Shown here: in pieces, positions 7,501-30,266 of the stretch
How the letters are laid out: each line of letters opens with the position of its first letter
Numbering within the stretch: position 1 is the stretch's first letter
Origin: an uncultured Candidatus Poseidoniales archaeon
Lineage (GTDB): Archaea > Thermoplasmatota > Poseidoniia > Poseidoniales > Thalassarchaeaceae
Assembly: GCA_964645485.1 (NCBI GenBank)
Contig: CAZXZO010000021.1
Location: 1 to 31,159, forward strand
Reading direction: 5' to 3'
DNA length: 31,159 bases
Program-made: the position numbers and the translations under genes
The notes under the pieces: model-generated
Database searches by the model: none
What the model saw: only the letters and a program-made list of their open reading frames with translations
Told to the model about the DNA's origin: nothing

Positions 7501-10500
7501 GGAATTAGTAATGTCCCATGAGTTTCCTGAAAAAGTCGCTGACAACGGCTCTGCGCGCCGCATTGATTCTCTTTCAATATCCAAATGATTTGGTGCTGGA
7601 CCAAATCCAAACAACCCATTATCTGCAGTTGTCAACCAAATGCCATTGGCTCCAACGTAGCCACCAGTTAGCGAGAACATGTATTCTTGACGAATTACAT
7701 TATGCTGGCTTGAAGTAATATCAACCCAATCAACACCACCATTACTGAGAACGAGTAAAGTAGTTCCATCACTAATAATATCATTAATTGGCCATGCTGA
7801 AAATGACCATGATGGGTGTCCTGTTTCCATCTGATTAGCACCTGCATTCCAATGCATTAGCGGCTCCTCAAAGGTAGCAACGTGCACTCCCCACCAATCT
7901 GCTGCAATCGCCTTGACGTCATTTGATGGCAACATATCTACACGATACTGTTGCCCTGGCTGCATCGTTGTCAAATCGAATGATGTTGCCCCAGGTCTTG
8001 AAGCACCTTCACCATTATGTGATAAGAATAAAGTGGGACCAATTGATATTGTTGAATTACCACTTGAAATCGTTGTACTTGGCGCGTATGCTATACCGTT
8101 TACACGATTCCCAATCAGTCCAGATTGTGCATTGTATGTTGCAACAACTGAATGGCTTGGAACATCCCAGCGAACCATCCCTGCAGGTGTAGCGAGCATC
8201 AGCTCAGTCCCTTCAACCCAAATCTTGTCAATTATTGGCCCGGGAAGTCCATCTTGAGTCGTGATAGAGTCATCCCATGCTTGGGTAGTAGTATTCCATA
8301 CACCAATGCCACCATAAGTTGCAACCCAAATACGATTGTCATACTCAACAAAGTCACGAACGATGTTTGAAGGTAGACCTGCAAGCAGTGAGCCATCTGT
8401 CCAACTTTGAGTGGTTAAATTGTAAACTTGGAATCCAGCAGATGTTGTTGTTGTGCCCATCAGTCCAATTACTAAATCACTACCAGAACGATAGAGTCCA
8501 TCCATCTGATAATGTAGTGGAACCGGGGTTGCTGAAATTTGACCTGTTGTGATATCAACATGGTAAAGTCCAGCACTAGTTGTAACCCACAAATCGTTGT
8601 TAATTGGCAGAATTTCATTGACGATATCCCAAACGAATGGATACGCTTCAATCCACTCGATTGAGCCGTTTGGAAGTAGTTGGCCATGCAGAATCGAGGA
8701 ACCTGAATACTGTTGAGAGTCATCTGCAGATGTCAACCAAACATTTGTCCCACTGAAAGTGACTTCAAGCATTCTGCCGCTTGATAATCCTGCTAGAATA
8801 TCTACTGCACCTTTGTGCAATCCTGTTGAATTAATGATGTCAACTCTGTTGTATCCAGAATCGCCACCAGGTCTGCCAATAATCCAATCAACTTGGCTGG
8901 TGTTAGAAGGTCTAACCTCCATACTTGATCCCTGAGTACCTACATCAATTTTCATCCCCGAACCAAGTTGTCCACCACTTGCAGCGATTCTAGAAATTCC
9001 TCCAGAGCCCCCATCTTCATCGGTGTGTGAAACCATCAAAACACCGTCATGCCAACGCATTCCATCAGGGAATACTTGGTCTGGCATGATACCGTTTGTT
9101 GTCTCTGTAATAGTTCCTAGCCAGTGACCTGTAGTGTAACTAAATCTTGAAATTCCGACATCGTTGCGTTCAAATCCAACGTAAATTACATCGCCAATTT
9201 CATCACAAGCCAAAGCAACTGCATCATCATCGTCTAATCCTCGATTTTGGGTACTACCCTGTGTCCAACCTGATAACCATGAGTTGGTTTGCAAGTCATA
9301 TCTTGCAACACCACCCTGAGTACCGAAGCCTTGGTATCTAGACATTGCAATATGCATTATATCATTACAAACTTCCATTGAGAAGCCAAATCCAGCAGGG
9401 ATATTTGTGCTTCCTGCTGCCCAACTGCTCCAAGTTTGAGTAGTCCCGTTATACTGGAAAATACGACTATTACGATTCCAACCACTGTTTGCCATAGTAG
9501 TATACCACAGATCATCTCCAACGATTTCAATGTCGAAAATTGTATCCTCTGAATTTGAAGGCAGGCCACCATTGTCTGCTGTAAGAGTAGTTGCCCAAGT
9601 GTCATTATACATATCATATCTAGCAATACCTTCGTATGTTGCGAAGTGAATTAGCCCTTGATACAAATCAATGGAACGAATAGGTCCCACTAATACTGTG
9701 TCATCCCATTCATTGAGAAGATTTCCATTGTAGTCAAAGTGCCGATGAACCTTTTCCCCATAGGATGCAAAGATGTGACAAGCGGAGACATTGAGTGGTT
9801 CACATTCACCAGCGTAAACAGAATTGACCCGTAGAATTGAACCGGTTGCATCTAGAGCGTTACCCCAAGTGTCGTTTGCATGGTCCCAGCGAACAACACT
9901 ACCTGCGTCCAAGCCCCACCAACCTGATGGAGTTACACCAATCCACAACATCCCATCAGGGCCTTCTCCAATTCCGTAAACCAGGCCATTTTGATTTATC
10001 TGTTGGCCAGCATCCAAAGATGAGAGTGTTGTCATATTATCAAGGTCATAGCGATAGATATTATCGTTTGACTGGGTCCCTGCCCGTGCTTCTGAGTAGT
10101 ACAGAACATTACCAATAATTACCAGTTCCCCTGGCTCATTCTGACCGTTTGCTCTGCTGAATGTTTCTTCTACAGTCTCATTCACTAAGTCAATCAAACG
10201 GAGCCCAAAATCACCACCAATCCACACACGATGAGTTAGGCGGTCGGGGATTAGGGTCGTTACATCATTGTCAGTCACTAAATTATTTGAATTCGAAGAA
10301 TCCCACTCTTGAAGCCAGACATCGTTAATCCTGTCATACCGAGCAACACCCATTCCGTTCAAACCGATGTATGCAACATCATTGTATTCGTATGTAGGAG
10401 CGTTCCAAGTAGCCTCACCTGCTACCCACACATCAACAACTGTGTCGTTGACAACATCAATTATTCCAGCACCATAATTGGTTCCAGCATAGAGATTGCC

Positions 10501-12918
10501 ATTGTTGAGAATGGAAACTGCAAATACCCATGAAGAAGGTAGACCTTCTGGATTGGAGTAGTAATTCCAACAATTCTCTTCATGTAAATCTGATAGACGA
10601 TATTGACAAGCACCTGCATTAGTTCCAGCATACAGATAATTTGCATCAGAATCTAGAGCGTAAAAGTTTGAAGGATTGAATCCTCCCTGTGCCTGAATGT
10701 GGGTCCATGAAACTCCGTTGTATCGGTCAGCACCGTCAGCAGTTCCAACCCACATTGAACCGCCGCTATCGCGATGTAATGAGTATACATTATTGTTCGA
10801 GATTCCATTTCCACCTCTCGTTGCCCTCCATGTATCAACCACATCACCCGAAACTCGGTCAAAGATTAACACACCGTATCCGTAAAGCCCGAGGTACATT
10901 TGGTTGCCATCAGTTTCCACCGGCATATATGCTACATTATCCATCCCGGTAGAACGCCAAGAAGACAACAAAGTGTCATTTGTGATGTCAATTCGTAACA
11001 CCCCTTGATTGGATGCTATGTATGCGATTGCAGAACGTGCTGCAACCCCTCTGATATTATTTGTAAAAGAGTCAGACCGCCCGGTTGACCAAGACGATGA
11101 TACAGTTTTGTTGACCGCGTCAACTAAGGTTACACCAGCGTTTGAATGGCCAACTACGATTGTATCAGTAGTTACATCAAAGGCTAGATAATCAGCATCA
11201 TTTGAGTTTAGATTATCACTAATCGCTAGATGAGCAATTTGAGTTCCATTGAAAGCAAAATTATAGATTCCGTCATCACTAGTTGCTACCCAAACTGAAT
11301 TGCCATCAGTTTCTAATGCCTGATTGATAGTACCGGTTTCGATTGGTATTAACCAATGATTCAATTGTTTATCAAATCGGTCAATGACTCCATTTCCAGC
11401 AACCCAAACCACATTGTTTACTTCCAATGCATCATTCATTACTGCACTAGTTGGTCCAGATGCAAGTAACATTGTGGAAACGTGAGTCGGTGGGGTCGAT
11501 GGTTCGAAAAGTGCGAAACTTCCACCACCATCCCCAACAAGAATAGTGTCTACACCTGGTGACCTAACGCCACCGTTTGGCCAAGTAATCAAATCTACTC
11601 CATCACGTACTAAACCAACATCTTGTAGTGCCTTACTAGTAGAAAATGCACCCATAGTCATGTTGTAAAAATGAAGTGTGTCGCCAGCCAAGATGTGTAA
11701 CCATTCCCCACTTTGAGCCATTCCACGTACATCATTTGAATCAAGCCAATTTGCATCTGTCCAAGTGGCTAGCCATGAACTAGTTGCTACATTGTAGCGC
11801 ACGATTCCAGCATCTGCTAATCCAATCATTAGGATACCGTTCATCAATTCTAATTGGACTACATCATCACTTGGTAACGAGTTTTGAGTACTCCAAGTAG
11901 ACTGCCATTGGCTGCTTGAGGTGTCGTAACGCATTACGCCACCACCGTCAGTAGCAAGGTAAACTATGCCACCAACTTCCATCATATCTGTTACAATATC
12001 TAAGCCGGAAGATGGGTTACCAGCAACGCTGATTCCATCGGCTATCAAATTCGCCTCATTGGTACCTGCCCAAACTAATCCGGCTGAATCTGTCATCATC
12101 GCTGTAACTATCTCCGAAATACTTCCCGACATACTCGATTCAATTGAAAATGGACCTGAGAGTTCAGTAGAATCTGTTAGCGACCAAGCGCGGAATTTTG
12201 TCGGGCCATCATCAACTGAGACTAGAAGCATATCATTGAGAGTATCAACAACCATCGTACTCGCTCCGGTAATATTCTCTGCCAACTCTATAACGGGTGG
12301 GTCATTAGTTGCATCCAGTTGAACAACTGTTTCGTTGATCAGCAAATACATCCTACCATCTTCGGGATGAAGTGCTGAGGCACTTACATCAAGAGTAAAT
12401 GGTGAAAAGGTGACATATGCATCTGCGGGCCTCAATGCCTCAACAACCAAATCAGTAACTTCGGCATCACCGGGTAGGAGCCAAGATGCCCCTGCATTAG
12501 CATTAGGGGTTAGCCGAGAGGAGTGAGGGTCTGAGCCCATCAAGTCATTCTGTTGACCAAAACCTCCTAATCCTCGCCAATCCATGATTTGTGCTTGAGT
12601 ATCAACAAATGATAGTTGAGGCTGTTCTACCCAAGTGCCATTTGAGCCGTTAACTCGGACTTCAAATGACAAATTCTCAACAAGTGCACCAGGTGCTAAT
12701 GTGAGGTGTAAATCCCCTTCAGCGAGAACTCCGGTTGCAGGGTCTGCACCAACCGCATCAAGACTTATCCAACCAGTATCATTGGTTCCACCTGAACCCC
12801 ATTCTACCGCATTTCTGCGATTAACCACTGTTTCTAATTGCAAAACTGGAGTCAACGATGCGATTAGCATCAACCCGACTAGAAAAAGGGGGACTGTCGT
12901 TCTATTACTTTGAACCAT
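4561..12918 (-). CDS. Giant (2785 aa) single-pass surface protein: signal peptide, many two-component-regulator-propeller-like blades, about six FnIII-like repeats, C-terminal TM and acidic tail
   Basis: Uninterrupted 8.36-kb ORF with a hydrophobic N-terminus. Recurrent blade motifs (LPSDDVVQL, LPSSWVFAV, LPSNIVRDF, LPGPIIDKI, LPSNDVKAI; WxAT, GVxRYD). D-x-P-x-D-x-G...V-x-W repeats. TM LLTILLSLAIVTVLLLAI. Confidence 0.9.
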   Translation of the reverse strand: MVQSNRTTVPLFLVGLMLIASLTPVLQLETVVNRRNAVEWGSGGTNDTGWISLDAVGADPATGVLAEGDLHLTLAPGALVENLSFEVRVNGSNGTWVEQPQLSFVDTQAQIMDWRGLGGFGQQNDLMGSDPHSSRLTPNANAGASWLLPGDAEVTDLVVEALRPADAYVTFSPFTLDVSASALHPEDGRMYLLINETVVQLDATNDPPVIELAENITGASTMVVDTLNDMLLVSVDDGPTKFRAWSLTDSTELSGPFSIESSMSGSISEIVTAMMTDSAGLVWAGTNEANLIADGISVAGNPSSGLDIVTDMMEVGGIVYLATDGGGVMRYDTSSSQWQSTWSTQNSLPSDDVVQLELMNGILMIGLADAGIVRYNVATSSWLATWTDANWLDSNDVRGMAQSGEWLHILAGDTLHFYNMTMGAFSTSKALQDVGLVRDGVDLITWPNGGVRSPGVDTILVGDGGGSFALFEPSTPPTHVSTMLLASGPTSAVMNDALEVNNVVWVAGNGVIDRFDKQLNHWLIPIETGTINQALETDGNSVWVATSDDGIYNFAFNGTQIAHLAISDNLNSNDADYLAFDVTTDTIVVGHSNAGVTLVDAVNKTVSSSWSTGRSDSFTNNIRGVAARSAIAYIASNQGVLRIDITNDTLLSSWRSTGMDNVAYMPVETDGNQMYLGLYGYGVLIFDRVSGDVVDTWRATRGGNGISNNNVYSLHRDSGGSMWVGTADGADRYNGVSWTHIQAQGGFNPSNFYALDSDANYLYAGTNAGACQYRLSDLHEENCWNYYSNPEGLPSSWVFAVSILNNGNLYAGTNYGAGIIDVVNDTVVDVWVAGEATWNAPTYEYNDVAYIGLNGMGVARYDRINDVWLQEWDSSNSNNLVTDNDVTTLIPDRLTHRVWIGGDFGLRLIDLVNETVEETFSRANGQNEPGELVIIGNVLYYSEARAGTQSNDNIYRYDLDNMTTLSSLDAGQQINQNGLVYGIGEGPDGMLWIGVTPSGWWGLDAGSVVRWDHANDTWGNALDATGSILRVNSVYAGECEPLNVSACHIFASYGEKVHRHFDYNGNLLNEWDDTVLVGPIRSIDLYQGLIHFATYEGIARYDMYNDTWATTLTADNGGLPSNSEDTIFDIEIVGDDLWYTTMANSGWNRNSRIFQYNGTTQTWSSWAAGSTNIPAGFGFSMEVCNDIMHIAMSRYQGFGTQGGVARYDLQTNSWLSGWTQGSTQNRGLDDDDAVALACDEIGDVIYVGFERNDVGISRFSYTTGHWLGTITETTNGIMPDQVFPDGMRWHDGVLMVSHTDEDGGSGGISRIAASGGQLGSGMKIDVGTQGSSMEVRPSNTSQVDWIIGRPGGDSGYNRVDIINSTGLHKGAVDILAGLSSGRMLEVTFSGTNVWLTSADDSQQYSGSSILHGQLLPNGSIEWIEAYPFVWDIVNEILPINNDLWVTTSAGLYHVDITTGQISATPVPLHYQMDGLYRSGSDLVIGLMGTTTTSAGFQVYNLTTQSWTDGSLLAGLPSNIVRDFVEYDNRIWVATYGGIGVWNTTTQAWDDSITTQDGLPGPIIDKIWVEGTELMLATPAGMVRWDVPSHSVVATYNAQSGLIGNRVNGIAYAPSTTISSGNSTISIGPTLFLSHNGEGASRPGATSFDLTTMQPGQQYRVDMLPSNDVKAIAADWWGVHVATFEEPLMHWNAGANQMETGHPSWSFSAWPINDIISDGTTLLVLSNGGVDWVDITSSQHNVIRQEYMFSLTGGYVGANGIWLTTADNGLFGFGPAPNHLDIERESMRRAEPLSATFSGNSWDITNSTTPGQRIALIGPSNSAILPSQANSASPNGIPIHQMPLTLSSPVEGAAIWVASHSVNYSGTWNLTELNSNLENEFSLAARRGTLTQEGRDLHIRLQSPLNGTLEVRIKYDWTRSESPIELLDLFDRPDDGGGVLVAEWTPSQDSGWAAYRIYLQEGNWSSMPTSADLAMRAPDARVPMWSTTLAEIATVDGVRIVDGVDIYGVALIEYDDGTLGEPSSIMGPAAASDEVPNPPAWANAGPADGGADGDLYVEWSKCTAIDHAGTRIWAVTQEITDAIGLPTQGNDLTGQANSTVLQLEKGQPYWIALTCVDEGGLHDPANATIVGPVVPTGGINDGIPPSPVENITAYDTPEDEGGRITVEWTPNNEDDCAWHTVLVRPSIADEMTPTSAADFANATIVADCSTNSTIISHWGATPLEDNTLYWVTVVAFDAWGNGDYGNVTVVQVAPEKNLRGTDPPARVNNLSAWDHPQDKGEAIDVSWAATDVDDFGFYVIWASSQPVDNLAATWARCKDDVSACGAIKMDIQYPINSQDGLIGLTMTKALYDGDSVENSNPDTIRPNVPLSVTVTIHDLYGSAFLTGLPSVVVTPIDNRDDIIAPDRLQAPVVTDVPNDNGTAVYVEFELSDASDIDHYEVYSDIIAYTSSGHRQPIMILDRNVEQPILVDMIDGGAAIMSGIPVHIAIVPVDSSGNAHRDLLNVGSGKAIDNSGDDPGGHLPDVDFTIQWSEDGGAIEVEWQELVRTDIRSYRIFVSDSRFENTDEADLAKGGIIGTFWSLEEFNETSQYDNSTHWFIAVSAYDGNAWKHLVQAKELKPYKAPTDGGGDGNDDGEASSGLFDLIDMNTLLTILLSLAIVTVLLLAIRGRSNRSRNEALELAQAAWGLPQEEGWSDNEDGLDPRGPDVDLAGTLMPAASQIQASRESQVTSTTQEAQSGFAQQVETPPTDASRRLAEISEDLFGDTASSSPSSGDSELDSLIDDLL

Positions 12919-19350: not shown

Positions 19351-19848
19351 ATGACTACACCACATAACATTAGCAACACCGGAGTTGAAGTAATGCCAGA
19401 ACCACCGATGATCCTCAATGATGATGAATATGATGAGGTTGCGAAAGCAATTGTTTTGACCGAAGAATTAGGTGCAAAAGTTCGCAAATTATTCCGTAAT
19501 AATTCGGATGAGGTTGTTCATGATATATCGTGGGAAGTAGATGCTGCGGTTGAAGCGTTAGATGTGTTTGCATCACGCTGGACAATTGAAATTCTAGCCA
19601 CACTCTATATCGCGGGTGAACGACGTTTCAATGAACTACGACGACTTCTAGAAGGTATCTCGAGTAGAACCTTGTCTGATAAACTGACTAGCCTCAGATT
19701 GTCTGGTTTTGTAGACCGTATAGTTGTAGATGGCCCTCCGGTAAAAGTTACATACAAACTTACCGAACATGGAGAACGTTCTGGACGCTTATTGAGCCCG
19801 TTAGTTGCCTACATGAAACTCAACAATGAGAGTGTAAAGAAAAGTTGA
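19351..19848 (+). CDS. HxlR-family winged-helix transcription regulator
   Basis: SRWTIEIL...RRFNELRRLLEGISSRTLSDKL..L...GFVDR......PVKVTYKLTEHG.. Confidence 0.88.
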   Translation: MTTPHNISNTGVEVMPEPPMILNDDEYDEVAKAIVLTEELGAKVRKLFRNNSDEVVHDISWEVDAAVEALDVFASRWTIEILATLYIAGERRFNELRRLLEGISSRTLSDKLTSLRLSGFVDRIVVDGPPVKVTYKLTEHGERSGRLLSPLVAYMKLNNESVKKS

Positions 19849-19861
19849 AATTTCGTCTAAA

Positions 19862-20563
19862 ATGGAGGTCACAGCACCAACACCTACAATAGGGACCGGC
19901 GACAGAAGAAATCCTATGGCACTACTGAAGCAGTTAGGAAGCCGTCATGCCCTAATCGGCGTAGCGGTTGCCGGATTGACTGGTTTGGGTTCATTGACGG
20001 CTGGTATTTTGCCATGGAATTGGTCAATGTCTGGCACCATCAGTTCATCTCACAATCGCAGTTGGGAACACCCATTGAGAAGCAAAATTCTCGATGCTCT
20101 TGACTCAAACCCGGGTATTTGTTACCGCCAATTACAACGTAATCTAAATGTTGCAAACGGCACTTTGCGGCATCACCTTGATGTATTGCAGACACAAAAA
20201 ACGGTTACTACAATGCCAGTAAATGGTAGAACTTGCTATTACGCGGGAGCACCAAGTCAGATTGAGATTCTTAGAGATATGAATATTGAGGATGAGAAAG
20301 CAGCAGAAATGCTTCCGGTTGGACTTTCACAAGTACAACGAGAAGTCGTTACACGCCTTGTCCAAGACCCACTACCAAAATCCCAAGCCTCACTAGCGCG
20401 CGACATTAGTCGTAGTCGTGCCTCAGTAAATAGCGCAGTACTCGTGCTTCGCCGACGAGGGATTCTATCCTGCACCCATTTAGATTTGGCAAACCACCTA
20501 CACGGTCTACGCACTGGTGCACTTGATTACGAGTGGATTGATGAGCGACCAATCGCAGCATGA
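19862..20563 (+). CDS. Winged-helix regulator with an N-terminal hydrophobic segment and two HTH modules
   Basis: Hydrophobic ALIGVAVAGLTGLGSLTAGILPW; HTH1 HPLRSKILDALDSNPGICYRQLQRNLNVANGTLRHHLDVL; HTH2 KSQASLARDISRSRASVNSAVLVLRRRGIL. Starts 13 bp after the HxlR stop. Confidence 0.75.
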   Translation: MEVTAPTPTIGTGDRRNPMALLKQLGSRHALIGVAVAGLTGLGSLTAGILPWNWSMSGTISSSHNRSWEHPLRSKILDALDSNPGICYRQLQRNLNVANGTLRHHLDVLQTQKTVTTMPVNGRTCYYAGAPSQIEILRDMNIEDEKAAEMLPVGLSQVQREVVTRLVQDPLPKSQASLARDISRSRASVNSAVLVLRRRGILSCTHLDLANHLHGLRTGALDYEWIDERPIAA

Positions 20564-20579
20564 ATCCCCAATTCGAAAG

Positions 20580-20681
20580 TGAATTAATAGTGAATTTACT
20601 CACTCTGAGCAGGGTCACACCTACTTAGTAACATAAATCATCGATTCGTGAATGAATTAATAGTGAATTTACTCACTCTGA
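20580..20681. repeat. Perfect 29-bp direct repeat TGAATTAATAGTGAATTTACTCACTCTGA x2, period 73 bp, each containing AGTGA-N6-TCACT
   Basis: Copies at 20580-20608 and 20653-20681, with a 44-bp spacer. Confidence 0.95.
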
Positions 20682-20765
20682 AAGAGGGCGCTTCGCGTTA
20701 AGTAGTCCTGAATCAACAAATAGCAACAATAGCACTTAGAACCGACGGACTTCGCCAATGACTAG

Positions 20766-21848
20766 ATGTTGAGACTCCGCCTTGAGCAACACCCTGCTCC
20801 CACTGGCAAGAAAGATGCTGACATGCTACTCGCATGGCTGCTCGACACATTGGGATTGGTGCGCCGACGAAATGATACCAATTCTACAGATGCCATTCAA
20901 CGCCCACTGCACAGATTGATGCGAGATCATTTGGTAAAAGAACCAATGAAAGGCGTTGATGCAAAGACTTTAGCAGACCAACTCGGAATCAGTATGACTG
21001 CTCTTCACCACCATCTGAAAGGACTTCAATCGGTAAGAATTGTAGCCTCCGAAATTGGTGAAAACGGATGGCAGATGCATCACCTCCGTTGTGGCTCTCT
21101 TGAGGCAGCCATTGACCTACTGCACCTAGAAGTTAGAGGAATTCTCGCCCTACGCCTTGCTCCACTCAAAGAATGGCAAACTGGCTCAGTAACTCAAGAA
21201 GGGGACGATGAAATAGAGAGTTTAGACCTAAAACTGAGTATTTGCGAACCTCGGCCACTACAAGGAAAAGAAGATGAAATTGATGCCTTTCTAAACGACT
21301 TTGGCCTGCGGGGGGAACGTCCAAAAAAACGAAGTGGACAAGATTTAACACGCCTTGTTTTTGAAAAAATGCTGACTGCAAATCACCCTATTTCCTTAGA
21401 TGAGGCGGTCTCTGAATGGGGCGCTACCCGCCCAAGACTGACAAGAACTTTTGACCGATTCAGAGCCGCTGGTTTGGCAGAACGTGTACTACGCCATGAC
21501 CGACTTTCAGTAATTCTCTGGGATGGACTCTCGAGCCAATATACTAGACGGGGGGAAGAGTGGTTACTCACTAAAGGTGGATTGAGTAGATTAGACGACA
21601 AGGTGGTTAAACAGGTCACAAAATCTCTGCGTGAAAACAAATTTGATTCCGAGCGCTGTGCAAAACTTTTCTCTTCGGTGAGCATTGAAGACCAACGTTT
21701 GGCCATTAACCTCCTAGGTGGGAGATTACCATACGGATACAGACTATCGGGAAGTACCGGGGAAGATGTATCGCGCCAAGTTTCACAAAGGGTTGAGAGC
21801 GTATTCAGCCGGTTGAAGCGGGTTGCTTCCACCATTGATGACTTGTGA
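20766..21848 (+). CDS. ArsR-like helix-turn-helix protein with an internally duplicated wHTH module
   Basis: Module 1: LLAWLLDTLGL...DAKTLADQLGISMTALHHHLKGL. Module 2: IDAFLNDFGL...ISLDEAVSEWGATRPRLTRTFDRFRAAGL. Confidence 0.75.
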   Translation: MLRLRLEQHPAPTGKKDADMLLAWLLDTLGLVRRRNDTNSTDAIQRPLHRLMRDHLVKEPMKGVDAKTLADQLGISMTALHHHLKGLQSVRIVASEIGENGWQMHHLRCGSLEAAIDLLHLEVRGILALRLAPLKEWQTGSVTQEGDDEIESLDLKLSICEPRPLQGKEDEIDAFLNDFGLRGERPKKRSGQDLTRLVFEKMLTANHPISLDEAVSEWGATRPRLTRTFDRFRAAGLAERVLRHDRLSVILWDGLSSQYTRRGEEWLLTKGGLSRLDDKVVKQVTKSLRENKFDSERCAKLFSSVSIEDQRLAINLLGGRLPYGYRLSGSTGEDVSRQVSQRVESVFSRLKRVASTIDDL

Positions 21849-22961: not shown

Positions 22962-23576
22962 ATGGCTGAACAGAGTGCTCCCCTGCTAGCGTACGAGGAC
23001 TATGAAGCGAACGCTGTGCACATAGGTACTCAGACAAAGAGTAAGGACATGCAGAACTTCATTTCCAAGACTGAAACTGATGGTGCAACAATCCACCTAA
23101 TTGACGTAACTAAGACTGACGAAAGAATCAGATTCGCTGCTAATTTCATCAATAATTACGAGGCGCGTGACATTCTTGTAGTCAGCGCTCGTCAATATGG
23201 ACAGCGCCCGGCTCGCATGTTTGCTCAAGCAATCGGTGCTCGCCAAATAGTTGGCAGATTTATCCCTGGTACTCTTACCAACCCTAATCTACGCACTTAC
23301 ATTGAACCACGAGTTATCTTCGTGACAGACCCGCAAGCAGACTCTCAAGCACTTTCAGAGGCTGTCAAGAGTGGTTTACCAGTAATTGGAATCTGTGATA
23401 CCAATAATCATCTTCGCAACGTTGACTTCTGCATCCCTGCTAACAACAAAGGTCGTAGAAGTCTAGCACTAGTTTACTGGCTGCTATCTCGTGAAATCCT
23501 CAAGGCTCGAGGGGAAACAGATGATGCTACATGGGCACATCACCAAAAAGTTGAGAATTGGGAATCTTCCTTCTAG
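22962..23576 (+). CDS. rps2: 30S ribosomal protein uS2, archaeal type
   Basis: VHIGTQTK, ILVVSARQYGQ, GRFIPGTLTNP, EP...VTDPQAD.QA..EA, CDTNN, IPANNKGRRSLALVYWLL.REIL. The start may be 22938 or 22962. Confidence 0.97.
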   Translation: MAEQSAPLLAYEDYEANAVHIGTQTKSKDMQNFISKTETDGATIHLIDVTKTDERIRFAANFINNYEARDILVVSARQYGQRPARMFAQAIGARQIVGRFIPGTLTNPNLRTYIEPRVIFVTDPQADSQALSEAVKSGLPVIGICDTNNHLRNVDFCIPANNKGRRSLALVYWLLSREILKARGETDDATWAHHQKVENWESSF

Positions 23577-23675
23577 ATTTAATCTAGATTCATCCTACGC
23601 TATCAAGCGAATTAATGCCTATGTCATCTGTATCATGCAGGCGCAATGCTCTTGACTGAGCCTGCTTAGTTAGTC

Positions 23676-24914
23676 ATGATGGGCGATTCTTCAAGTGCTG
23701 GTGACGCCCCTTCAGGTGACACTATTGCTCCTGATGATTCCTTATCATTCGAGGCGACAAGAAGTGATGATGGGATCTGGCGAGATTCAGAAGGCGTGGC
23801 ACTCCCTGTTTCAGCAAGCGACTTAGAGCGCCACGCTTACTGCCCTCTATCATGGCATTTAGCTCGCTCTGGAGTAAAAGGTGCTGGCGATGCCATTGAA
23901 CTTGGTAAACAACGTCACAAAGAAATTGAGGAAGCGATGTCAAACTACCAAAGCCAGGACCTGAAAGCAAGAAAAGAGATGGTCATATGGACGTGGTGGT
24001 TCGCTATTGTGGTAACATTAACCCTTGACACTGCTGCATTTTTCTTCGTGGAAGAGGGAGTGATTGCTGACAGCGACTTTGGCCTTTTTGCCCGTTATCT
24101 TGTCCTTCTAGCCTTGGTTTGGTTAATCTTAGCGATACTTCTCCTATTCATACCTTGGAGAAGATTCCTCGGAACACCTTTCGGATTGGCCCAACCACCA
24201 ACTCCCTCTGAATTTGATATTGTCGACCTTGAACTCTACCTCTTTGAGAAAGATAACTCCAATTCTAGTGGCTGGTGGTATGGTGGGAAAGTTGAGTTCA
24301 CAATCTTACTTGGAAGTTTGACGATTGCTCTGCATGGATTAGCACTTTTTGAGGCTCAAGAGCGCTCAATTGCAACTTTTGTGCTTTTGGTAGCCACTCT
24401 TGGCTGGACATTTATTGCATCTTGGCAACTTCATAAAGGATTACTGGCAAATATTCTTGCTGAAGAAAAAAGCAAGGAACTTGGAATGGACAGTGGTTCG
24501 GTGCTAGCATACAATGATGACTCCAACTCTTCTGAACTGCTGAAAGACGACGTCACGGGTATTAGAGGGCGCCCAGACCAAATCATCATATTCGAAAATG
24601 AGGTTGTTCCTGTTGAACAAAAAACGGGAAAAATTCCTGCACAACCACACTTAAGCCATAAAATCCAATTGTATGCCTACCTTCATCTTGTTTCTAAAAT
24701 AACTAATAATCAACTCAAATATGGAATTCTTCGTTACGGAGAAGATGTGATCCACAACATAGGTTGGGGAGAAGGGGAGAGTAAAGTCTTGATGACTCAT
24801 CTCAATGAAATTCAAAGATTGATGGTTGAAGGTGGCGCTAAAAGAGACCACAATAGGCCAGGAAAGTGCCGAAATTGCTCTCGTCGGCATCGCTGTCCAG
24901 AAGCCCTTGACTAA
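23676..24914 (+). CDS. Cas4-family PD-(D/E)XK nuclease with four Cys Fe-S ligands, interrupted by a four-TM insertion; no cas operon
   Basis: SASDLERHAYCP (C56), G.QRH (H81), GIRGRPD (D301), PVEQK (E314, K316), HKIQLYAY (Q331/Y335), C398-x2-C401-x5-C407. Hydrophobic helices at about aa 103-125, 137-160, 208-225 and 232-252. Confidence 0.85.
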   Translation: MMGDSSSAGDAPSGDTIAPDDSLSFEATRSDDGIWRDSEGVALPVSASDLERHAYCPLSWHLARSGVKGAGDAIELGKQRHKEIEEAMSNYQSQDLKARKEMVIWTWWFAIVVTLTLDTAAFFFVEEGVIADSDFGLFARYLVLLALVWLILAILLLFIPWRRFLGTPFGLAQPPTPSEFDIVDLELYLFEKDNSNSSGWWYGGKVEFTILLGSLTIALHGLALFEAQERSIATFVLLVATLGWTFIASWQLHKGLLANILAEEKSKELGMDSGSVLAYNDDSNSSELLKDDVTGIRGRPDQIIIFENEVVPVEQKTGKIPAQPHLSHKIQLYAYLHLVSKITNNQLKYGILRYGEDVIHNIGWGEGESKVLMTHLNEIQRLMVEGGAKRDHNRPGKCRNCSRRHRCPEALD

Positions 24915-25510
24915 ACAGGGATGCACTCGTCTGGGTCGGCTCGCTCAGGGAATTCAATGCAAGGGCGGATGACTGAAACGGAGACTTCAAACTCGTCGTG
25001 GAAGGAAATTTGGTCAATTGGAGTATCTAATCCATATCCTTGAGCGTCAACTTCTAGTTCCCAAACTCCAAACTCAAAGGGAGGGGAAAATCTCTGTAAT
25101 GGTGGGTAACGGTCGGTTGTGGCATTTTCTTCCCAATATGGAGTGTCGGTATTTTTGTTGGCACCAGGTTCCCATAGCATTGCATGGACGTATCTCACTG
25201 TGCTAGTGATATTACTAGTCTCAACTCCAGCGATTTCGCTGAAATCCATTTGCACGCGGAAGAATACCTGTATTTCTTTGACTTCTGAGTCGATACGAAT
25301 TTGATGTGGTTGTGGATGGAATATAATGTCTGCAGGGTCTGTAGAATCAAAGACATGGTCAAAACCCAATACAACGACATCATCTTTGGTTTCTGGAACA
25401 CCCCTATTCCACTCCATCAACTCTCTGCTTGCAACCAAACCAATACAACCCGAAAAGACACTCATTGAGAGTAGAATGGCGGCGAGGAAGAGGGGTTTGG
25501 CGGCTCTCAT
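24911..25510 (-). CDS. Putative archaeal lipoprotein
   Basis: Basic N-terminus, hydrophobic core and lipobox-like FSGC (Cys22). Stop overlaps the Cas4-like stop by 4 bp (convergent). Confidence 0.7.
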   Translation of the reverse strand: MRAAKPLFLAAILLSMSVFSGCIGLVASRELMEWNRGVPETKDDVVVLGFDHVFDSTDPADIIFHPQPHQIRIDSEVKEIQVFFRVQMDFSEIAGVETSNITSTVRYVHAMLWEPGANKNTDTPYWEENATTDRYPPLQRFSPPFEFGVWELEVDAQGYGLDTPIDQISFHDEFEVSVSVIRPCIEFPERADPDECIPV

Positions 25511-25666: not shown

Positions 25667-28351
25667 TCAATCTTCACTATCCTTGCGGCGGCGTTTTGGG
25701 CGTCGGCGTTTTTCTACTGGCTCTGGTTCAGTCTCTGAAATCTTTGCCGGTGGAGGTGATTCACCATCATCTACTGAGAAGTCTGTGACTTCTTTTTTAT
25801 CCTTCAATACATTACCAACTACGGTATTATCAGGGATTAATTCGACTTCAACCTCTTGGCCGGGTAGTATTCCATCTTCGCCTGTGATATCAAAGATATC
25901 AGCCCGAATATCTGCATCGGATGCGCTTAACTCTACTTCGGAATCTTGCAGATGGCGACGTCCTTCCTTGTCTCCAATGATATCGTCAAGGTCAACCTTT
26001 TCCGTTTCGTGAGCAGACCGCATTGATGTAATCACTAATTCATCTTCTGCCTCTTCTTCGGTCAAATCAACTTCTTGTTGCTCACGGTCCGCTATTGCAG
26101 CATCAATTTCTTGCTCAGCCTCTGTGAGATGTTCATCCCAATCAGATTCTAACTGTTCCTCAGCATATCCCATTTCAGAAATTGCATCGCCGTAGTCTTC
26201 TGCACCACGCACAATCTCATCATCGTCTTCCTCAACTTCTTCCTCAACCTCGTCGTGAGCGATTTCCTTGCGTGTACGGCGCTCATAGAAGGAAGAGACA
26301 TCCTGAACAGTACCGCAATATGGACAGTACTCCATTACATCTGGAATGTTAGAATTACAAGATTCGCAATCATGGAATTGAGATAGCCCTTCAACAAGGT
26401 CAAACTCACAGTATGGGCAGAATTCCTCATCACCTTCAATTTCACCATCACAAGATGGGCAGTAATCGTAAGTTTCTCTCTCACCCTCTTCTGAATCCAC
26501 TCGTGTCAACTTAATTGCTGCTGCTAGAACTATAATTAACAGTAAACCTGCAAATATAAACAACAATGTTGAAGCAGTGAAATTTGATGATTCGGTCTGC
26601 GGACCATCATTACTGGTGGCTGAAATCGACCACGCTGCTGTCCATGTTGCTACAGAACTTCCTGCTGGAACAATATACAACTCAAAAGAACCGGCCTCAT
26701 CAGCCTTGAAACTACAAAGTATAGAATTAGTTCCAACTGATGCTGTGAAATTAACGCTCGTGGTGCTCAATACTTCCCCTTCTCCATGATTAAGACAGGT
26801 GAACACCTCGCTTCCGGTACCCTCGTCTGAAACAATGTCAATGGTGTATGTGTAGGTGTTTCCAACCACCAATGGCGTATGGGCTGGAGTCCAACTTTCA
26901 CTTTCTTGCAGAAAGCGCAAGCGAAGATTGCTATGCAATGTTACTGAACCAAAGGCGGTATTATCGTTGATATTGGAATCGTAACTAATAGCATTGGCCT
27001 CCCAACTTGCACTAAATTGTAATGCCCCTTCTTCACCACTTGGACCCACTACTGTAAATGTGAAAGTACGCTCTTCCCCACCTGGAATCCCCAACCCTAA
27101 CAACGGTTGTAAGGAATTGCCATCAAATGATGCTGATAAATCACCAATCACAGCTATTGAACCGGTATTAATTACTGTAACATCAAAATTAACCTGCTCA
27201 CCTGCTAAAATTGAATCACTCGATGCCGAGGCGTGAGGCGAAACCACCACATTAGGTTCTGGATGGATTGTGATTTGAGTGTCAAGATCATCATTGAACT
27301 GGATTGATTGTGGGACCTGCCTACTTGGGTCTATCCGCACTCTCAAAGTGTGAACACCGGGCTCAAGGGAAGGCATTTGTGACAAGGTCAACTCTTGCTC
27401 CCAATTCTGTAATGTCGCACTCTCGGTAAAGGTCATATCAAAGGAAATAACGCTGGTTTCAAGTTCGCCATCAACTAGATAGATTCCTACGGTTATCGTG
27501 CTATCCCCTGTCCCACCCATTCTGAGGATTTGACCACTAAGAGTCCAAGGACCACTAAGAGTTCCAAGAACTGTCTCTACTGTAATCTCAGGATTTGGTT
27601 GCTGATGATGGAGATAATCAGGACTAGAAAAAACGGTGAATGGTAGAGGAGTTGCGGCATTGTTTCCTGTGTCTGACTCCGTTATCCCATCAGATGCTGA
27701 ATTTGCAATTGCACTAATTTGATGATTGCCTGCCAATGGAGCGTTGAATGAAGTTTGAATTGTAGTTGAAAAACCAGCAAGCAAAGGTGAAACCGCGAGT
27801 TCTGTCAGGGTTGCACCATCAAGTTGAACCAACAAATGTGATGCTGGTGAGTCGAGGTTCCCTTGGTTAGTGACATCGACTGAAAGATTTACAACATCGC
27901 CTTGATGTAAATCCGTTGCCGGTGTGATAGAAATATTGCTGGCAATTAAATCAATTTTACCAGCGACTTCGAACTGTTTAGAAACTGAATTCGTTGAACC
28001 GTTGTGAGTAACAACAAGAACAACTGCATGAGTACCGAATGGCACATCTGACCAAGTACCAGTTACCTGCACAAAACCGCCGCCTGAGATAACTACTGTT
28101 TCAGTATGGAATGCAGTATTCGCTTGACTATCTGGATGTAGTGAAACATCAATATTTGTGATACTTGTAGAAATGTTGTTTGTTAATGTCGCGGTGACTT
28201 CAACATCATCACCTTCGGAAGGAGATGAAGGAGAGATGGCAAGCCCATCAACACTGAAATTGACATCACCCGCATTTGCAGCATAAATCACTGGCACCAT
28301 TAAGAGGAGCAATAAAATTCCCGAAGTGGTGATGGCTGATGCCCGCCCCAT
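25667..28351 (-). CDS. Single-pass surface protein: signal peptide, CARDB/Ig-like domains, TM, cytoplasmic double zinc ribbon, long acidic tail
   Basis: Start moved to ATG 28351 (MGRASAITTSGILLLLLMVPVIYA); the longer ORF overlaps the divergent gene. CARDB patterns DL..SNI...P...GDVVNLSVDVTNQG and E...NN. CPSC/CPYC/CESC/CPYC after the TM. Confidence 0.85.
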   Translation of the reverse strand: MGRASAITTSGILLLLLMVPVIYAANAGDVNFSVDGLAISPSSPSEGDDVEVTATLTNNISTSITNIDVSLHPDSQANTAFHTETVVISGGGFVQVTGTWSDVPFGTHAVVLVVTHNGSTNSVSKQFEVAGKIDLIASNISITPATDLHQGDVVNLSVDVTNQGNLDSPASHLLVQLDGATLTELAVSPLLAGFSTTIQTSFNAPLAGNHQISAIANSASDGITESDTGNNAATPLPFTVFSSPDYLHHQQPNPEITVETVLGTLSGPWTLSGQILRMGGTGDSTITVGIYLVDGELETSVISFDMTFTESATLQNWEQELTLSQMPSLEPGVHTLRVRIDPSRQVPQSIQFNDDLDTQITIHPEPNVVVSPHASASSDSILAGEQVNFDVTVINTGSIAVIGDLSASFDGNSLQPLLGLGIPGGEERTFTFTVVGPSGEEGALQFSASWEANAISYDSNINDNTAFGSVTLHSNLRLRFLQESESWTPAHTPLVVGNTYTYTIDIVSDEGTGSEVFTCLNHGEGEVLSTTSVNFTASVGTNSILCSFKADEAGSFELYIVPAGSSVATWTAAWSISATSNDGPQTESSNFTASTLLFIFAGLLLIIVLAAAIKLTRVDSEEGERETYDYCPSCDGEIEGDEEFCPYCEFDLVEGLSQFHDCESCNSNIPDVMEYCPYCGTVQDVSSFYERRTRKEIAHDEVEEEVEEDDDEIVRGAEDYGDAISEMGYAEEQLESDWDEHLTEAEQEIDAAIADREQQEVDLTEEEAEDELVITSMRSAHETEKVDLDDIIGDKEGRRHLQDSEVELSASDADIRADIFDITGEDGILPGQEVEVELIPDNTVVGNVLKDKKEVTDFSVDDGESPPPAKISETEPEPVEKRRRPKRRRKDSED

Positions 28352-28490
28352 ATACTCTCGAGACCACATACTGCACTTCAACCCTGCCGATTGATGCCGC
28401 CAAGCAGCAATGTCTGCAACAAGGTATTCTACAAGTAGAATACAAAGCAAGGGTTGAAGGCAAAGGTTAGGTGTCCTCAATTTGGTGACC

Positions 28491-30266
28491 ATGCGACGCG
28501 CTGGTGTGATTGTTGCAATTGTCGCAACCTTAATGCTCGCCCTGATACCTATTGGTGAAGTCACTGCAAAGGGTGGAAAAGTATCCGCTCCTACTTTTGG
28601 AACAGGTCCCAGCCAAGGTGAAACTTTAGCGGGAAGCGTGACAATTCTAGTTTCCACAACTAGTGGATTAGATGCTGTGAGCCTCGAAATTTTTGATGGG
28701 TCTACATGGTCTGAGGTAACAAATATCACATCCTCTACTTCTTGGCTTTACAACTGGGATTCATCTTCGGTTAGTGATGGAGGTTACCAATTCCGAATCG
28801 AAGGATGGGCTAGTGGTGTATCTAGTGGTGTAACAAATGGTGCGAACTTTGTAGTTGATAATACCGTCCCGAGTAATCTTGTTTTAGTTACTGAAAACCC
28901 TGATTATGGCGATGGTTTGGCTATTTCAACACGGGCTTGGTATGCTATTCCTAGCACCGGAACACTCTCTTTCACATGGAACGCAAGCGACACAAACCTT
29001 GACCATGCAACCCTTACAGATGTACCCACTCCTGGCTCTCCGTCTAACGATGGGCCTGGTTTTCTCGCTCATAGATGGGACTGGTCGACCGGGAGTTTCC
29101 CTTCTCAAGGAACTTGGGACCCTGTCTTAACTGTCTATGATGCAGCCGGACTTTCCTCAACTGAAACCCGATATATCGGCATTGACACTGTTGGCCCGAC
29201 TGTAGGAACTCCAACCCTTTCGATTAGTAGTGATTGGAACAATGCGCAGAATCTCGTGTTCTCAAATCTGTTCAATGGCGCTTCTGATAATAGTGGCTCG
29301 GGAATCGCTGGCTATGAAGTCAGAGATTCTGCTGATGCCACTTGGAACTCTATCGGCATTGGTGGTTCAGGAACATTAAGCCTACAAGAAGGGGTGCGGA
29401 CAATACAATTCCGTGCGATTGACAATGTTGGCAATCGTGGCACTAGTAGCGATTACACCGTTAAAATTGACCATGTTGCGCCAGTTGCGGGAGGATGGCT
29501 TGTACCAGAACTAACCACGGCTCTGACAGGAACTGTTGACATCACAGTTCAAGCAAGCGATTCTTTGTCTGGAGTTGACTCTTCATTGACCAAAATCCAA
29601 TACGGATTTGACTCTGATGGAGTCGGTCAAACGCCAGATATTACTGGCTCTTGGATAGATGTAGGATATGGATTATCAACTAGCCTCTCATCATCAATTG
29701 ACTGGTCCACCAAACAAGGACAATTCCTCTCACTCCGTACAGTTCTAGTAGATAATGCTAGCAATTCTGACAACTCTGTAACTCAACATTTCATGGTTTT
29801 CCCAAGCCTTGATCTGTCTTGGAATAGTGCTTCTGTGGATCGTTTGGTTGTGCGTGCGGGAACCGAAGGAAAAGTGAATGTGACATCTACTCTTGTGAGT
29901 AATGAAGGATATTCCGGTAGTGTCGTTGTTAGATTACAAACTGCGCCAGCAGACCGAAACAACAACGTTGCTTGGACAACAATTGAGACTAGAACTCTGC
30001 AGCCTGGTTCATTATCGGATTTACAAGAACAATTGGTTTGGAGCATCACGATTTTGAATCCTGGAGAAATCGATATTCGCTTGACTGCTGACTCTTCCGA
30101 TTCAATTTCAGAGAGAGATGAAGCCAACAATGATGCCTACATGGTGGCTCAAGGAGCAGACCAAAAGATGGTTGGTTCAGTGGCTTCGTTTTCACCAACT
30201 TTGCTGATGGTAATCCTTGCTGGATTATACTTTGGATTACAGATTTCTAGATCTAAATCTGAATAA
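28491..30266 (+). CDS. Secreted Ig-like/CARDB domain protein with C-terminal membrane anchor
   Basis: Signal peptide MRRAGVIVAIVATLMLALIPIGEVTA; Ig-like repeats ending DNT.P / DT.GP / DHVAP; TIQFRAIDNVGN; CARDB-like SERDEANND; C-terminal TM. Start 28482-28491. Confidence 0.85.
   Translation: MRRAGVIVAIVATLMLALIPIGEVTAKGGKVSAPTFGTGPSQGETLAGSVTILVSTTSGLDAVSLEIFDGSTWSEVTNITSSTSWLYNWDSSSVSDGGYQFRIEGWASGVSSGVTNGANFVVDNTVPSNLVLVTENPDYGDGLAISTRAWYAIPSTGTLSFTWNASDTNLDHATLTDVPTPGSPSNDGPGFLAHRWDWSTGSFPSQGTWDPVLTVYDAAGLSSTETRYIGIDTVGPTVGTPTLSISSDWNNAQNLVFSNLFNGASDNSGSGIAGYEVRDSADATWNSIGIGGSGTLSLQEGVRTIQFRAIDNVGNRGTSSDYTVKIDHVAPVAGGWLVPELTTALTGTVDITVQASDSLSGVDSSLTKIQYGFDSDGVGQTPDITGSWIDVGYGLSTSLSSSIDWSTKQGQFLSLRTVLVDNASNSDNSVTQHFMVFPSLDLSWNSASVDRLVVRAGTEGKVNVTSTLVSNEGYSGSVVVRLQTAPADRNNNVAWTTIETRTLQPGSLSDLQEQLVWSITILNPGEIDIRLTADSSDSISERDEANNDAYMVAQGADQKMVGSVASFSPTLLMVILAGLYFGLQISRSKSE

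Follow-up and report, generated by a model that had tools for sequence, protein, structure and literature searches.

The window analysed here, the whole of a 31,159-nucleotide stretch from an uncultured Candidatus Poseidoniales archaeon (contig CAZXZO010000021.1), carries at 23676..24914 of its forward strand a gene for a protein of 412 amino acids (aa). With a probability of roughly 0.6 we consider this protein to be an integral-membrane, cytoplasm-facing PD-(D/E)XK nuclease of the Cas4 family that holds a four-cysteine iron-sulfur (Fe-S) site and acts on nucleic acid at the membrane. A preliminary description made from the letters alone had placed the open reading frame (ORF) exactly there and had named C56, H81, D301/E314/K316, a QxxxY motif and C398xxC401x5C407 as its hallmarks; all of them are found, the QxxxY motif as Q331xxxY335 and the others at the positions given. 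The first cysteine, C56 (codon 23841-23843), lies in the motif SASDLERHxYC56PLSW, while H81 (codon 23916-23918), a putative metal ligand, sits on the helix of the same N-terminal module. The core contains D301 (24576-24578), E314 (24615-24617), K316 (24621-24623) and Q331...Y335 (24666-24680), that is, the catalytic set D...E-x-K with the QxxxY motif that marks Cas4-family members, and also a family-specific R390-x-H392. The C...CxxCx5C pattern of the family is likewise present and is predicted to bind a cluster; its C56, C398, C401 and C407 are the only cysteines in the protein. Matches to Pfam and PADLOC profiles agree with this assignment: over residues 291-408 Pfam reports PDDEXK_1 (PF12705, 39.5 bits, cut-off 22) and Cas_Cas4 (PF01930, 27.7 bits, cut-off 22.7), the Pfam Exo5 family weakly matches the N-terminal cysteine module (residues 44-116), and the PADLOC Cas4 models match at 1e-15 to 1e-17.

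Between the N-terminal module and the catalytic core lies a membrane part, so that the features of the gene, with the evidence for each, are the following (TM, transmembrane helix; KD, Kyte-Doolittle hydropathy; pLDDT, predicted local distance difference test).

23676..24914, + strand: whole gene, membrane-inserted Cas4-family nuclease, 412 aa (ORF list, profiles, model)
23676..23768, + strand: residues 1-31, variable low-complexity N-terminal tail (conservation 0.40; pLDDT <50 for residues 1-15)
23769..23981, + strand: residues 32-102, N-terminal Cas4 module with C56 and H81 (invariant among 30 orthologues; Exo5 match; within the Z 19.8 superpositions)
23982..24050, + strand: residues 103-125, predicted TM1 with invariant W105/W107/W108 and membrane-embedded D118 (hydropathy, alignment, model)
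24090..24152, + strand: residues 139-159, predicted TM2, the most hydrophobic helix (KD 3.17), with an A-L-V-W-L hairpin motif
24153..24200, + strand: residues 160-175, Poseidoniales-specific motif P-W-R-x3-G-x-P-F-G-x2-Q-P-P directly after TM2 (conservation 0.90)
24201..24284, + strand: residues 176-203, variable, lineage-specific acidic loop, predicted cytoplasmic (conservation 0.41; pLDDT <50 for 166-187)
24285..24353, + strand: residues 204-226, predicted TM3 with invariant E207 and H220 (hydropathy, alignment, model)
24369..24491, + strand: residues 232-272, predicted TM4 (232-252, W244) and stalk helix leading into the nuclease core (hydropathy, alignment, model)
24492..24863, + strand: residues 273-396, PD-(D/E)XK catalytic core (profiles, alignments, structure matches)
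24864..24911, + strand: residues 397-412, Fe-S motif K-C398-x2-C401-S-R-x3-C407 (invariant in 90 sequences; pLDDT 86-89)
23577..23675, no strand: 99-bp spacer between the uS2 gene and this gene (read from the sequence)

The KD scan, run with a 19-residue window, gives four peaks of at least 1.7 (107-125, 141-159, 206-224 and 231-249; scores 1.72-3.17), and these coincide with four long helices of the structural model described below, in line with the four membrane helices proposed at the outset. That proposal had put the insertion between the first cysteine and the core, which is correct; more exactly, it starts after the H81 helix and not directly after C56. Aligned with Pcal_0546, a Cas4 protein of known structure, profile positions 37-86 correspond to its residues 55-109, and 121-162 are the residues matched by positions 289-340; therefore a link of about 12 residues there is replaced here by about 185-200 residues. 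As the number of helices is even, both halves of the nuclease would lie on one side of the membrane. Positive charge indicates which side: across the family Lys and Arg reach a density of 0.218 in the loops on the nuclease side and 0.092 on the opposite side, and the window protein itself has nine such residues (3+3+3) on the former and one (0+1) on the latter. Fe-S proteins mature in the cytoplasm. Because of this and the positive-inside rule, the nuclease probably faces the cytoplasm, and we predict a polytopic membrane protein with both termini inside, in keeping with its even set of hydrophobic helices of about 20 residues and with the charge bias. The predicted external connections are short (126-138 and 227-231). 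From the cytoplasmic position of the nuclease it follows that the acidic loop at 160-203 should be cytoplasmic as well. The idea that this loop serves as a sensor or channel partner is not supported: besides its predicted location, residues 176-203 show a conservation of just 0.41 and low pLDDT, and the loop is missing from the short four-helix and the two-helix relatives.

The structure was modelled with AlphaFold2 from an alignment of 90 family members (mean pLDDT 83.8, predicted template modelling score 0.81, five models at 82-84, values below 50 confined to residues 1-15 and 166-187); this model replaced one built from 30 close sequences only, whose pLDDT was 64. In it an unbroken helix spans residues 72-126, so that the H81 helix runs directly into TM1, and helices at 132-158 (TM2), 204-226 (TM3) and 230-268 (TM4 and stalk) are followed by the beta-sheet and helices of the core. 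The top Foldseek matches are Cas4 proteins, namely SSO0001, the type I-C Cas4 and the type I-G Cas4/Cas1, with MGME1, ACE1, Dna2, AdnAB and Exo5 after them. VIA-align superimposes model residues 27/37-412 on two solved Cas4 chains with the same Z of 19.8: on 7MI4_A over 184 residues (chain 5-201) with a root-mean-square deviation of 3.1 Å, and on 8D3L_I over 188 residues (chain 2-205 of 218) with 2.9 Å. The next matches by this method are AdnAB, Exo5, Dna2, SSO0001 and ACE1. In contrast, the insert taken separately (78-271) matches generic long helical hairpins only, at Z of about 10, which for helical proteins is below a meaningful level. According to the model, modules that are distant in sequence thus come together as a whole Cas4 domain, carried by a stalk of two helices that run on into TM1 and TM4, which bears out the earlier suggestion that the two halves rejoin. 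The predicted joining of C56 to C398/C401/C407 rests on the superposition of the whole domain onto the solved cluster-binding arrangement of Cas4.

The same architecture is found throughout a large family. A word-indexed search returned at least 927 homologues, the best 120 of which are 47-86% identical to the window protein and nearly all full length (about 400-425 aa, with a few of 311 or 363 aa). Those that carry a name come from Candidatus Thalassarchaeaceae, Poseidoniales or Thermoplasmatota and are called 'Dna2/Cas4 domain-containing protein' or 'CRISPR-associated exonuclease Cas4', much as the preliminary description had anticipated. We aligned 30 orthologues (47-86% identity) and, more broadly, 90 members with identity down to 23%. 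Every hallmark residue is invariant among the 30, as are W105/W107/W108 and D118 in TM1, E207 and H220 in TM3, W244 in TM4 and the motif after TM2. This motif is also the most conserved region (0.90), compared with 0.71-0.82 for the membrane helices, 0.75 for the catalytic core and the lowest values, 0.40 and 0.41, for the N-terminal tail and the acidic loop. Among all 90, the four cysteines, K316, H328, Q331, R390 and H392 are invariant, and D301, E314 and Y335 are kept in at least 90%; H81, too, is kept in at least that share. Judging from these alignments, the complete catalytic and Fe-S apparatus of Cas4 is under strong purifying selection. Before the helices the family carries the motif SASDxERYxYCPLSW...G...H, and after them GRPD, PVExKTGRxPxGPxFSHxLQ...Y, HRNH and GKCxxCSRRxxCPE.

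An exhaustive profile search of 1.84 billion cluster representatives recovered 1272 proteins at E<=1e-3, including 98 at E<=1e-30. Counted between the first cysteine and the catalytic Asp in 67 full-length representatives, the helices number two in 15, four in 30 and eight in 20; the count is thus even in 65 of the 67, and the exceptions are one protein with seven and one with none. Two-helix proteins have about 260-285 aa, four-helix ones 325-410 and eight-helix ones 500-600, and an alignment of 31 sequences shows a single insertion point for all three forms. Together with the charge bias, these counts support the early claim that an even number of helices returns both halves to the same side. 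The series 2, 4, 8 without 6 is explained by successive duplication of a hairpin. In relatives an [AGS]-hydrophobic-x-W-hydrophobic motif occurs in 95 of 174 even-numbered helices and in 6 of 174 odd-numbered ones, and by eye, though uncounted, a polar Asn, His or Asp followed by Gly or Ser is often present in the first helix of a hairpin. The two halves of the eight-helix insert are homologous (33-54 bits, against at most 25 in 300 shuffles and 11-20 for reversed sequences), and hairpins of the eight-helix and the short four-helix forms are also related. The window protein retains traces of the motif (A-L-V-W-L in TM2, G-W in TM4, D118 in TM1, and H220 at the polar position of the first hairpin helix, TM3). 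Similarity between its own two hairpins is not detectable, as their BLAST score of 13.5 bits was reached by 108 of 300 shuffles, and for this protein we infer the hairpin repeat from its relatives.

A few sequences related to this family deserve separate mention. Homologues of 899 and 497 aa that looked like fusions turned out to be over-extended ORF calls in high-GC genomes, the real proteins being two-helix forms of about 265 aa. In one eight-helix lineage two C-terminal TRAM domains are fused to the protein (L111:6964-8898, minus strand); that such forms lack the N-terminal cysteine module was ruled out, as the module lies in frame directly upstream. The true start of the TRAM-fused form is upstream of the called one, and there is no ATG within the in-frame N-terminal module. 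The ESM Atlas contains a Planctomycetota cluster of 356-aa hypothetical proteins that resembles the window protein by language-model features (score 0.93), which was not recovered by the structural Atlas search. An Atlas search with the insert only gave just sub-threshold Thermoplasmatota hypothetical proteins.

The gene is present in 98 of 151 sampled Poseidoniales genomes (E<=1e-20), nearly always in one copy, and its presence is all-or-none by genus: it occurs in all sampled genomes of 15 genera and in 74 of 74 genomes of one family, probably the Poseidoniaceae (MGIIa) by genome names. Phylum-wide, 205 of 301 Thermoplasmatota genomes (each at least 85% complete) and 95 of 134 genera have it at E<=1e-15, and 24 diverse loci encode two-, four- or eight-helix forms, except for one mis-clustered ORF. 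When 185,579 species genomes were scanned with a pattern, 549 relatives were confirmed, the best 80 of them all Poseidoniales, and the named members among the matches listed are Thermoplasmatota only. Inheritance in most Thermoplasmatota is vertical and single-copy. Hundreds of assemblies made independently contain the architecture at full length and in conserved synteny, so a chimeric assembly can be set aside. One Poseidoniaceae genome contains an intact copy and a fragmented second one (G062:C6:85786-86948) with three in-frame TGA codons, which appears to be a decaying duplicate.

The gene is independent of CRISPR. The absence of cas1 and of an array nearby, noted at the start, was confirmed in that the window has no CRISPR-like tandem array and no Rfam match and that Cas1 was not found in the 82%-complete genome to which the window belongs; no separate search for cas2 was made. 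Cas1 was found in one of the 151 Poseidoniales genomes, against 98 with the gene described here, so this is a solo Cas4, a stand-alone gene without Cas1 or CRISPR context. The sole Cas1 match (G037:C35:950-1792) belongs to a genome of the window's genus and lies inside an open frame of 550 aa, which may encode a casposase or a fusion of Cas4 with Cas1.

From these data the following way of working can be proposed. The N-terminal Cas4 module with C56 and H81 would form in the cytoplasm, its H81 helix continuing as TM1; the chain would then cross the membrane four times as two helical hairpins, and TM4 would return as a stalk helix into the core. The halves would come together again in a Cas4 domain of the usual kind, which the cluster would staple and two stalk helices would hold at the inner membrane face, with the hairpin array (one, two or four copies by lineage) acting primarily as an anchor. 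As in characterised Cas4 enzymes, the activity would probably be cleavage of single-stranded DNA (ssDNA) or of DNA ends, and the location at the membrane would define which nucleic acid the enzyme meets. The fused TRAM domains fit a single-stranded nucleic-acid substrate on the cytoplasmic side. As to the biological role, we see about even odds that the enzyme constitutively processes or degrades DNA ends at the envelope, be they those of the cell's own chromosome or of incoming DNA, and this may be a housekeeping-type function of Thermoplasmatota that is dispensable in streamlined lineages. Such a role is favoured over defence because the pattern of inheritance is opposite to that of defence genes.

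Several observations weigh against this interpretation. TM1, TM3 and TM4 of the window protein are moderately hydrophobic (KD 1.7-1.8) and hold D118, E207 and H220. The NCBIfam equivalog model for Cas4, TIGR00372, scores 55.7, below its cut-off of 65. The window's genome holds other PD-(D/E)XK nucleases; among them are two ORFs, of 1285 and 1664 aa (G000:C12:19353-25405), possibly AddAB/AdnAB-like enzymes, so that bulk end resection need not depend on our protein. Further, the gene was not found in seven genera of the window's own family, probably the Thalassarchaeaceae (MGIIb), whose genomes are the smallest (1.3-1.5 Mb). The broad profile, too, gives no match at E<=0.01 in five genomes of this group, of which one is a single contig. 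In the two whose syntenic region was inspected, the single-contig genome among them, only about 80 bp separate uS2 from the downstream gene, and this points to a clean loss of this gene alone; loss of this kind in seven small-genome genera means that the gene is not essential. Finally, the invariant D118, E207 and H220, the motif after TM2 conserved at 0.90 and the unbroken helix from H81 into TM1 suggest that the insert of Poseidoniales does more than anchor.

The first alternative to a housekeeping enzyme is a dedicated antiviral barrier, that is, a membrane-stationed exonuclease that would destroy injected linear viral DNA and offset the scarcity of CRISPR-Cas in Marine Group II, attested by the single Cas1 among 151 Poseidoniales genomes. 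It is at the inner face of the membrane that the ends of injected DNA first appear, Cas4 has a historical tie to defence, with PADLOC matches to Cas4 and DruK nuclease models only, and the gene is lost in the most streamlined genera, as accessory functions often are. However, these matches are to generic nuclease-domain models, no cas, defence or mobile-element gene was found among the neighbours in the window or at related loci, and a tblastn search of 50,697 phage records returned no homologue. Defence genes are typically patchy, clustered in islands and often transferred, whereas this one is single-copy, vertical and phylum-wide, fixed among the genes for ribosomal proteins, Dus and GlmS/GlmU, and its sequence is strongly conserved in the core and the membrane part alike. 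Phylum-wide, single-copy and syntenic inheritance argues against a typical defence gene, while being silent on the substrate, and we consider the antiviral explanation unlikely.

An enzyme directed at RNA, tethered to the membrane for RNA processing or decay and placed like bacterial RNase E and RNase Y, is next in order and distinctly improbable. It stays a minority rival because of the TRAM fusion, TRAM being best known as an RNA-binding module, and of the ribosomal-protein genes that adjoin the gene in separate clades: uS2 in Poseidoniales, at 82 of 86 loci, and eL15 at every eight-helix locus examined. Some PD-(D/E)XK enzymes do act on RNA. Yet TRAM has an OB-like fold, which might just as well hold ssDNA, the ribosomal-gene adjacency changes its orientation from lineage to lineage and so looks like conserved synteny rather than an operon, the closest structural matches are all DNA enzymes, and to our knowledge the characterised Cas4-family enzymes are all DNases.

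Cytoplasmic processing of DNA during uptake, either for scavenging or for natural transformation, with the hairpin bundle in an import channel or docked on it, has a small chance of being correct. The membrane location fits it, conserved polar residues within membrane helices (D118, E207 and H220 here, Asn in relatives) are unusual for a mere anchor, and the heterotrophic archaea of Marine Group II have numerous surface proteins, large surface-protein genes adjoining ours. On the other hand, no uptake machinery is adjacent in any clade, the membrane part ranges from two to eight helices and has no family-wide invariant residue, and the secreted protein encoded downstream is kept when the nuclease gene is lost. 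Co-variation with the archaellum, a type-IV-pilus-like machinery, was looked for and rejected: archaellin is absent in the gene-bearing genera g1-g3 and present in the gene-less genera g9 and g13.

The polar residues also allow a bolder proposal, which in all its parts taken together we regard as a long shot. The hairpin array would form a constant eight-helix membrane unit, reached by an eight-helix monomer, a four-helix dimer (as for the window protein) or a two-helix tetramer, that gates nucleic-acid cleavage or couples it to events at or across the membrane; the intramembrane Asn, His and Asp residues (here D118, E207 and H220) would line a conduit or sensor, and the unbroken H81-TM1 helix would couple the unit mechanically to the active site. 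A homodimer prediction with two copies scored 0.00, which is evidence neither for nor against a dimer. If true, this would be a new archaeal transmembrane device that responds to DNA entry, membrane state or an envelope partner.

That the insert is not transmembrane at all, being a soluble, buried bundle of helices or an artefact of annotation or assembly in an ordinary cytosolic solo-Cas4, is hardly credible: three of the four segments do stand barely above the classical hydropathy threshold and contain charged residues, but relatives have at the same site two, four or eight clearly hydrophobic helices (20-25 residues, KD 2-3), the charge bias is of the positive-inside kind, the long antiparallel helices project away from the nuclease in the model, and conservation with synteny in hundreds of independent assemblies rules out a chimera.

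Returning to the membrane-anchored Cas4-family nuclease, we compared it with the Cas4 proteins of CRISPR adaptation (Geobacter sulfurreducens type I-G Cas4/Cas1, 7MI4; type I-C, 8D3L; SSO0001, 4IC1; Pcal_0546, 4R5Q). It shares with them the fold of the whole domain, with 184-188 of about 200 residues superimposed, as well as D...ExK, QxxxY, the upstream His and the 1+3 cysteine pattern of the Fe-S site. Unlike them, it has about 185 residues with four predicted membrane helices in place of the link of about 12 residues, no association with CRISPR or cas1 (with one order-wide exception), a score below the TIGR00372 cut-off, and the family-specific motifs KTGRxPxxPxFSH, HRNH and GKCxxCSRRxxCPE. 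Being a stand-alone gene in a non-CRISPR context, it resembles the solo-Cas4 and Cas4-like nucleases, and the Argonaute-associated ACE1 (PDB 9IAB) is a structural match with Z of about 12. Hudaiberdiev et al. (2017, PMC5704561), in their phylogenomic survey of Cas4, describe solo-Cas4 and Cas4-like groups alongside helicase, Argonaute or restriction-modification partners, from which our membrane-inserted family differs by having no constant partner; the word 'transmembrane' does not occur in the survey, and 'membrane' occurs solely in the name of an unrelated gene. Neither this survey nor the other papers found describe a clade with a membrane insertion. A further solo-Cas4 outside CRISPR loci, that of M. 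mazei, is cited in PMC13621843.

AddB/AdnAB, Dna2 and Exo5 have the same fold and the iron staple of one N-terminal and three C-terminal cysteines (Z 13-15); unlike the window protein, which has no helicase and is placed in the membrane, they are soluble and fused to a helicase or partnered with one. With ComEC (through its metallo-beta-lactamase domain), EndA, NucA and RNases E and Y it would share, by analogy, the idea of a nuclease at the membrane that meets a localised substrate, without kinship of sequence or fold: the protein has no Competence, Lactamase_B, beta-beta-alpha-Me nuclease or RNase-family match in Pfam at E up to 1. Enzymes of that type have their anchoring helices at a terminus or form part of a fusion with a channel, whereas in the window protein the membrane segment is inside the catalytic fold. 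EndA and NucA act outside the cell, whereas the predicted action of the window protein is inside it. ComEC is covered in PMC6299819.

The family is known in databases under generic Cas4 names, and the membrane-inserted architecture appears to be new to the searchable literature, though a prior description is possible: we found none in full-text literature, with subscription-only papers not covered. Non-CRISPR nucleases of the Cas4 family are poorly understood, and here they form a large, ancient and vertically inherited clade. Membrane hairpins placed in the middle of the fold and kept at an even count (2, 4 or 8) are strong genetic evidence for work at the inner membrane face. The family is widespread in Marine Group II, an uncultured group that ranks with the most abundant archaea in surface ocean waters, and also occurs in the majority of the other Thermoplasmatota sampled. 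It therefore points to a step of nucleic-acid metabolism at the membrane that is common and as yet unstudied. In addition, it shows in a natural protein how an Fe-S 'staple' may close a soluble fold that is interrupted by a membrane insertion, which is useful for studying the evolution of protein topology, and it corrects the systematic annotation 'CRISPR-associated Cas4' in genomes without CRISPR.

In Poseidoniales the gene belongs to a collinear block of about 13 kb with genes for an HxlR protein, two helix-turn-helix (HTH) proteins, Dus, uS2, the nuclease, a small secreted protein, large surface proteins and a KH protein; at two loci the nuclease gene and its downstream neighbour are inverted as a unit. 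No neighbour is common across clades, and each recurrent cluster of neighbours is confined to one clade. One short four-helix clade has a TPD-domain gene directly upstream and GlmS/GlmU downstream; the TPD-motif gene (PF14811) is on the same strand, 0-70 bp away or overlapping, which suggests an operon in that clade only. A two-helix form is flanked by genes for PFOR subunits and a SIR2-domain protein. None of 61 sampled Poseidoniales genomes gave a NurA match, so an anti-correlation of NurA with the nuclease is uninformative.

Upstream in the window, a trio of HTH regulators (HxlR type, HVO_0163-like and MarR/HTH_20-like) occupies 19351-21848 on the plus strand, and its order upstream of Dus and uS2 is kept across Poseidoniales. 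A 6-bp inverted repeat, TCTAGA-N5-TCTAGA, at 23572-23588 overlies the stop codon of uS2. Downstream, 24911-25510 on the minus strand encodes a 199-aa protein with an N-terminal signal or lipobox-like sequence and no Pfam match; this gene is convergent with the nuclease gene, their stop codons overlapping by 4 nt, and is its neighbour order-wide. An obligate functional link between the two was considered and rejected, since genomes from which the nuclease was lost still have this neighbour, at about 80 bp from uS2. Large surface proteins follow at 25667-28729 (minus strand) and 28482-30266 (plus strand), the second with CARDB. The first has a C-terminal membrane helix, then cytoplasmic Cys-rich motifs resembling zinc ribbons (CPSC...CPYC, CESC...CPYC) and a long acidic tail; its ORF is listed with too long a start region, which overlaps the adjacent ORF. 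Elsewhere in the window, positions 1-90 at the start of the contig form a 12-bp tandem repeat of 7.5 copies inside an open-ended ORF, and an ORF of 2785 aa lies at 4561-12918 on the minus strand.

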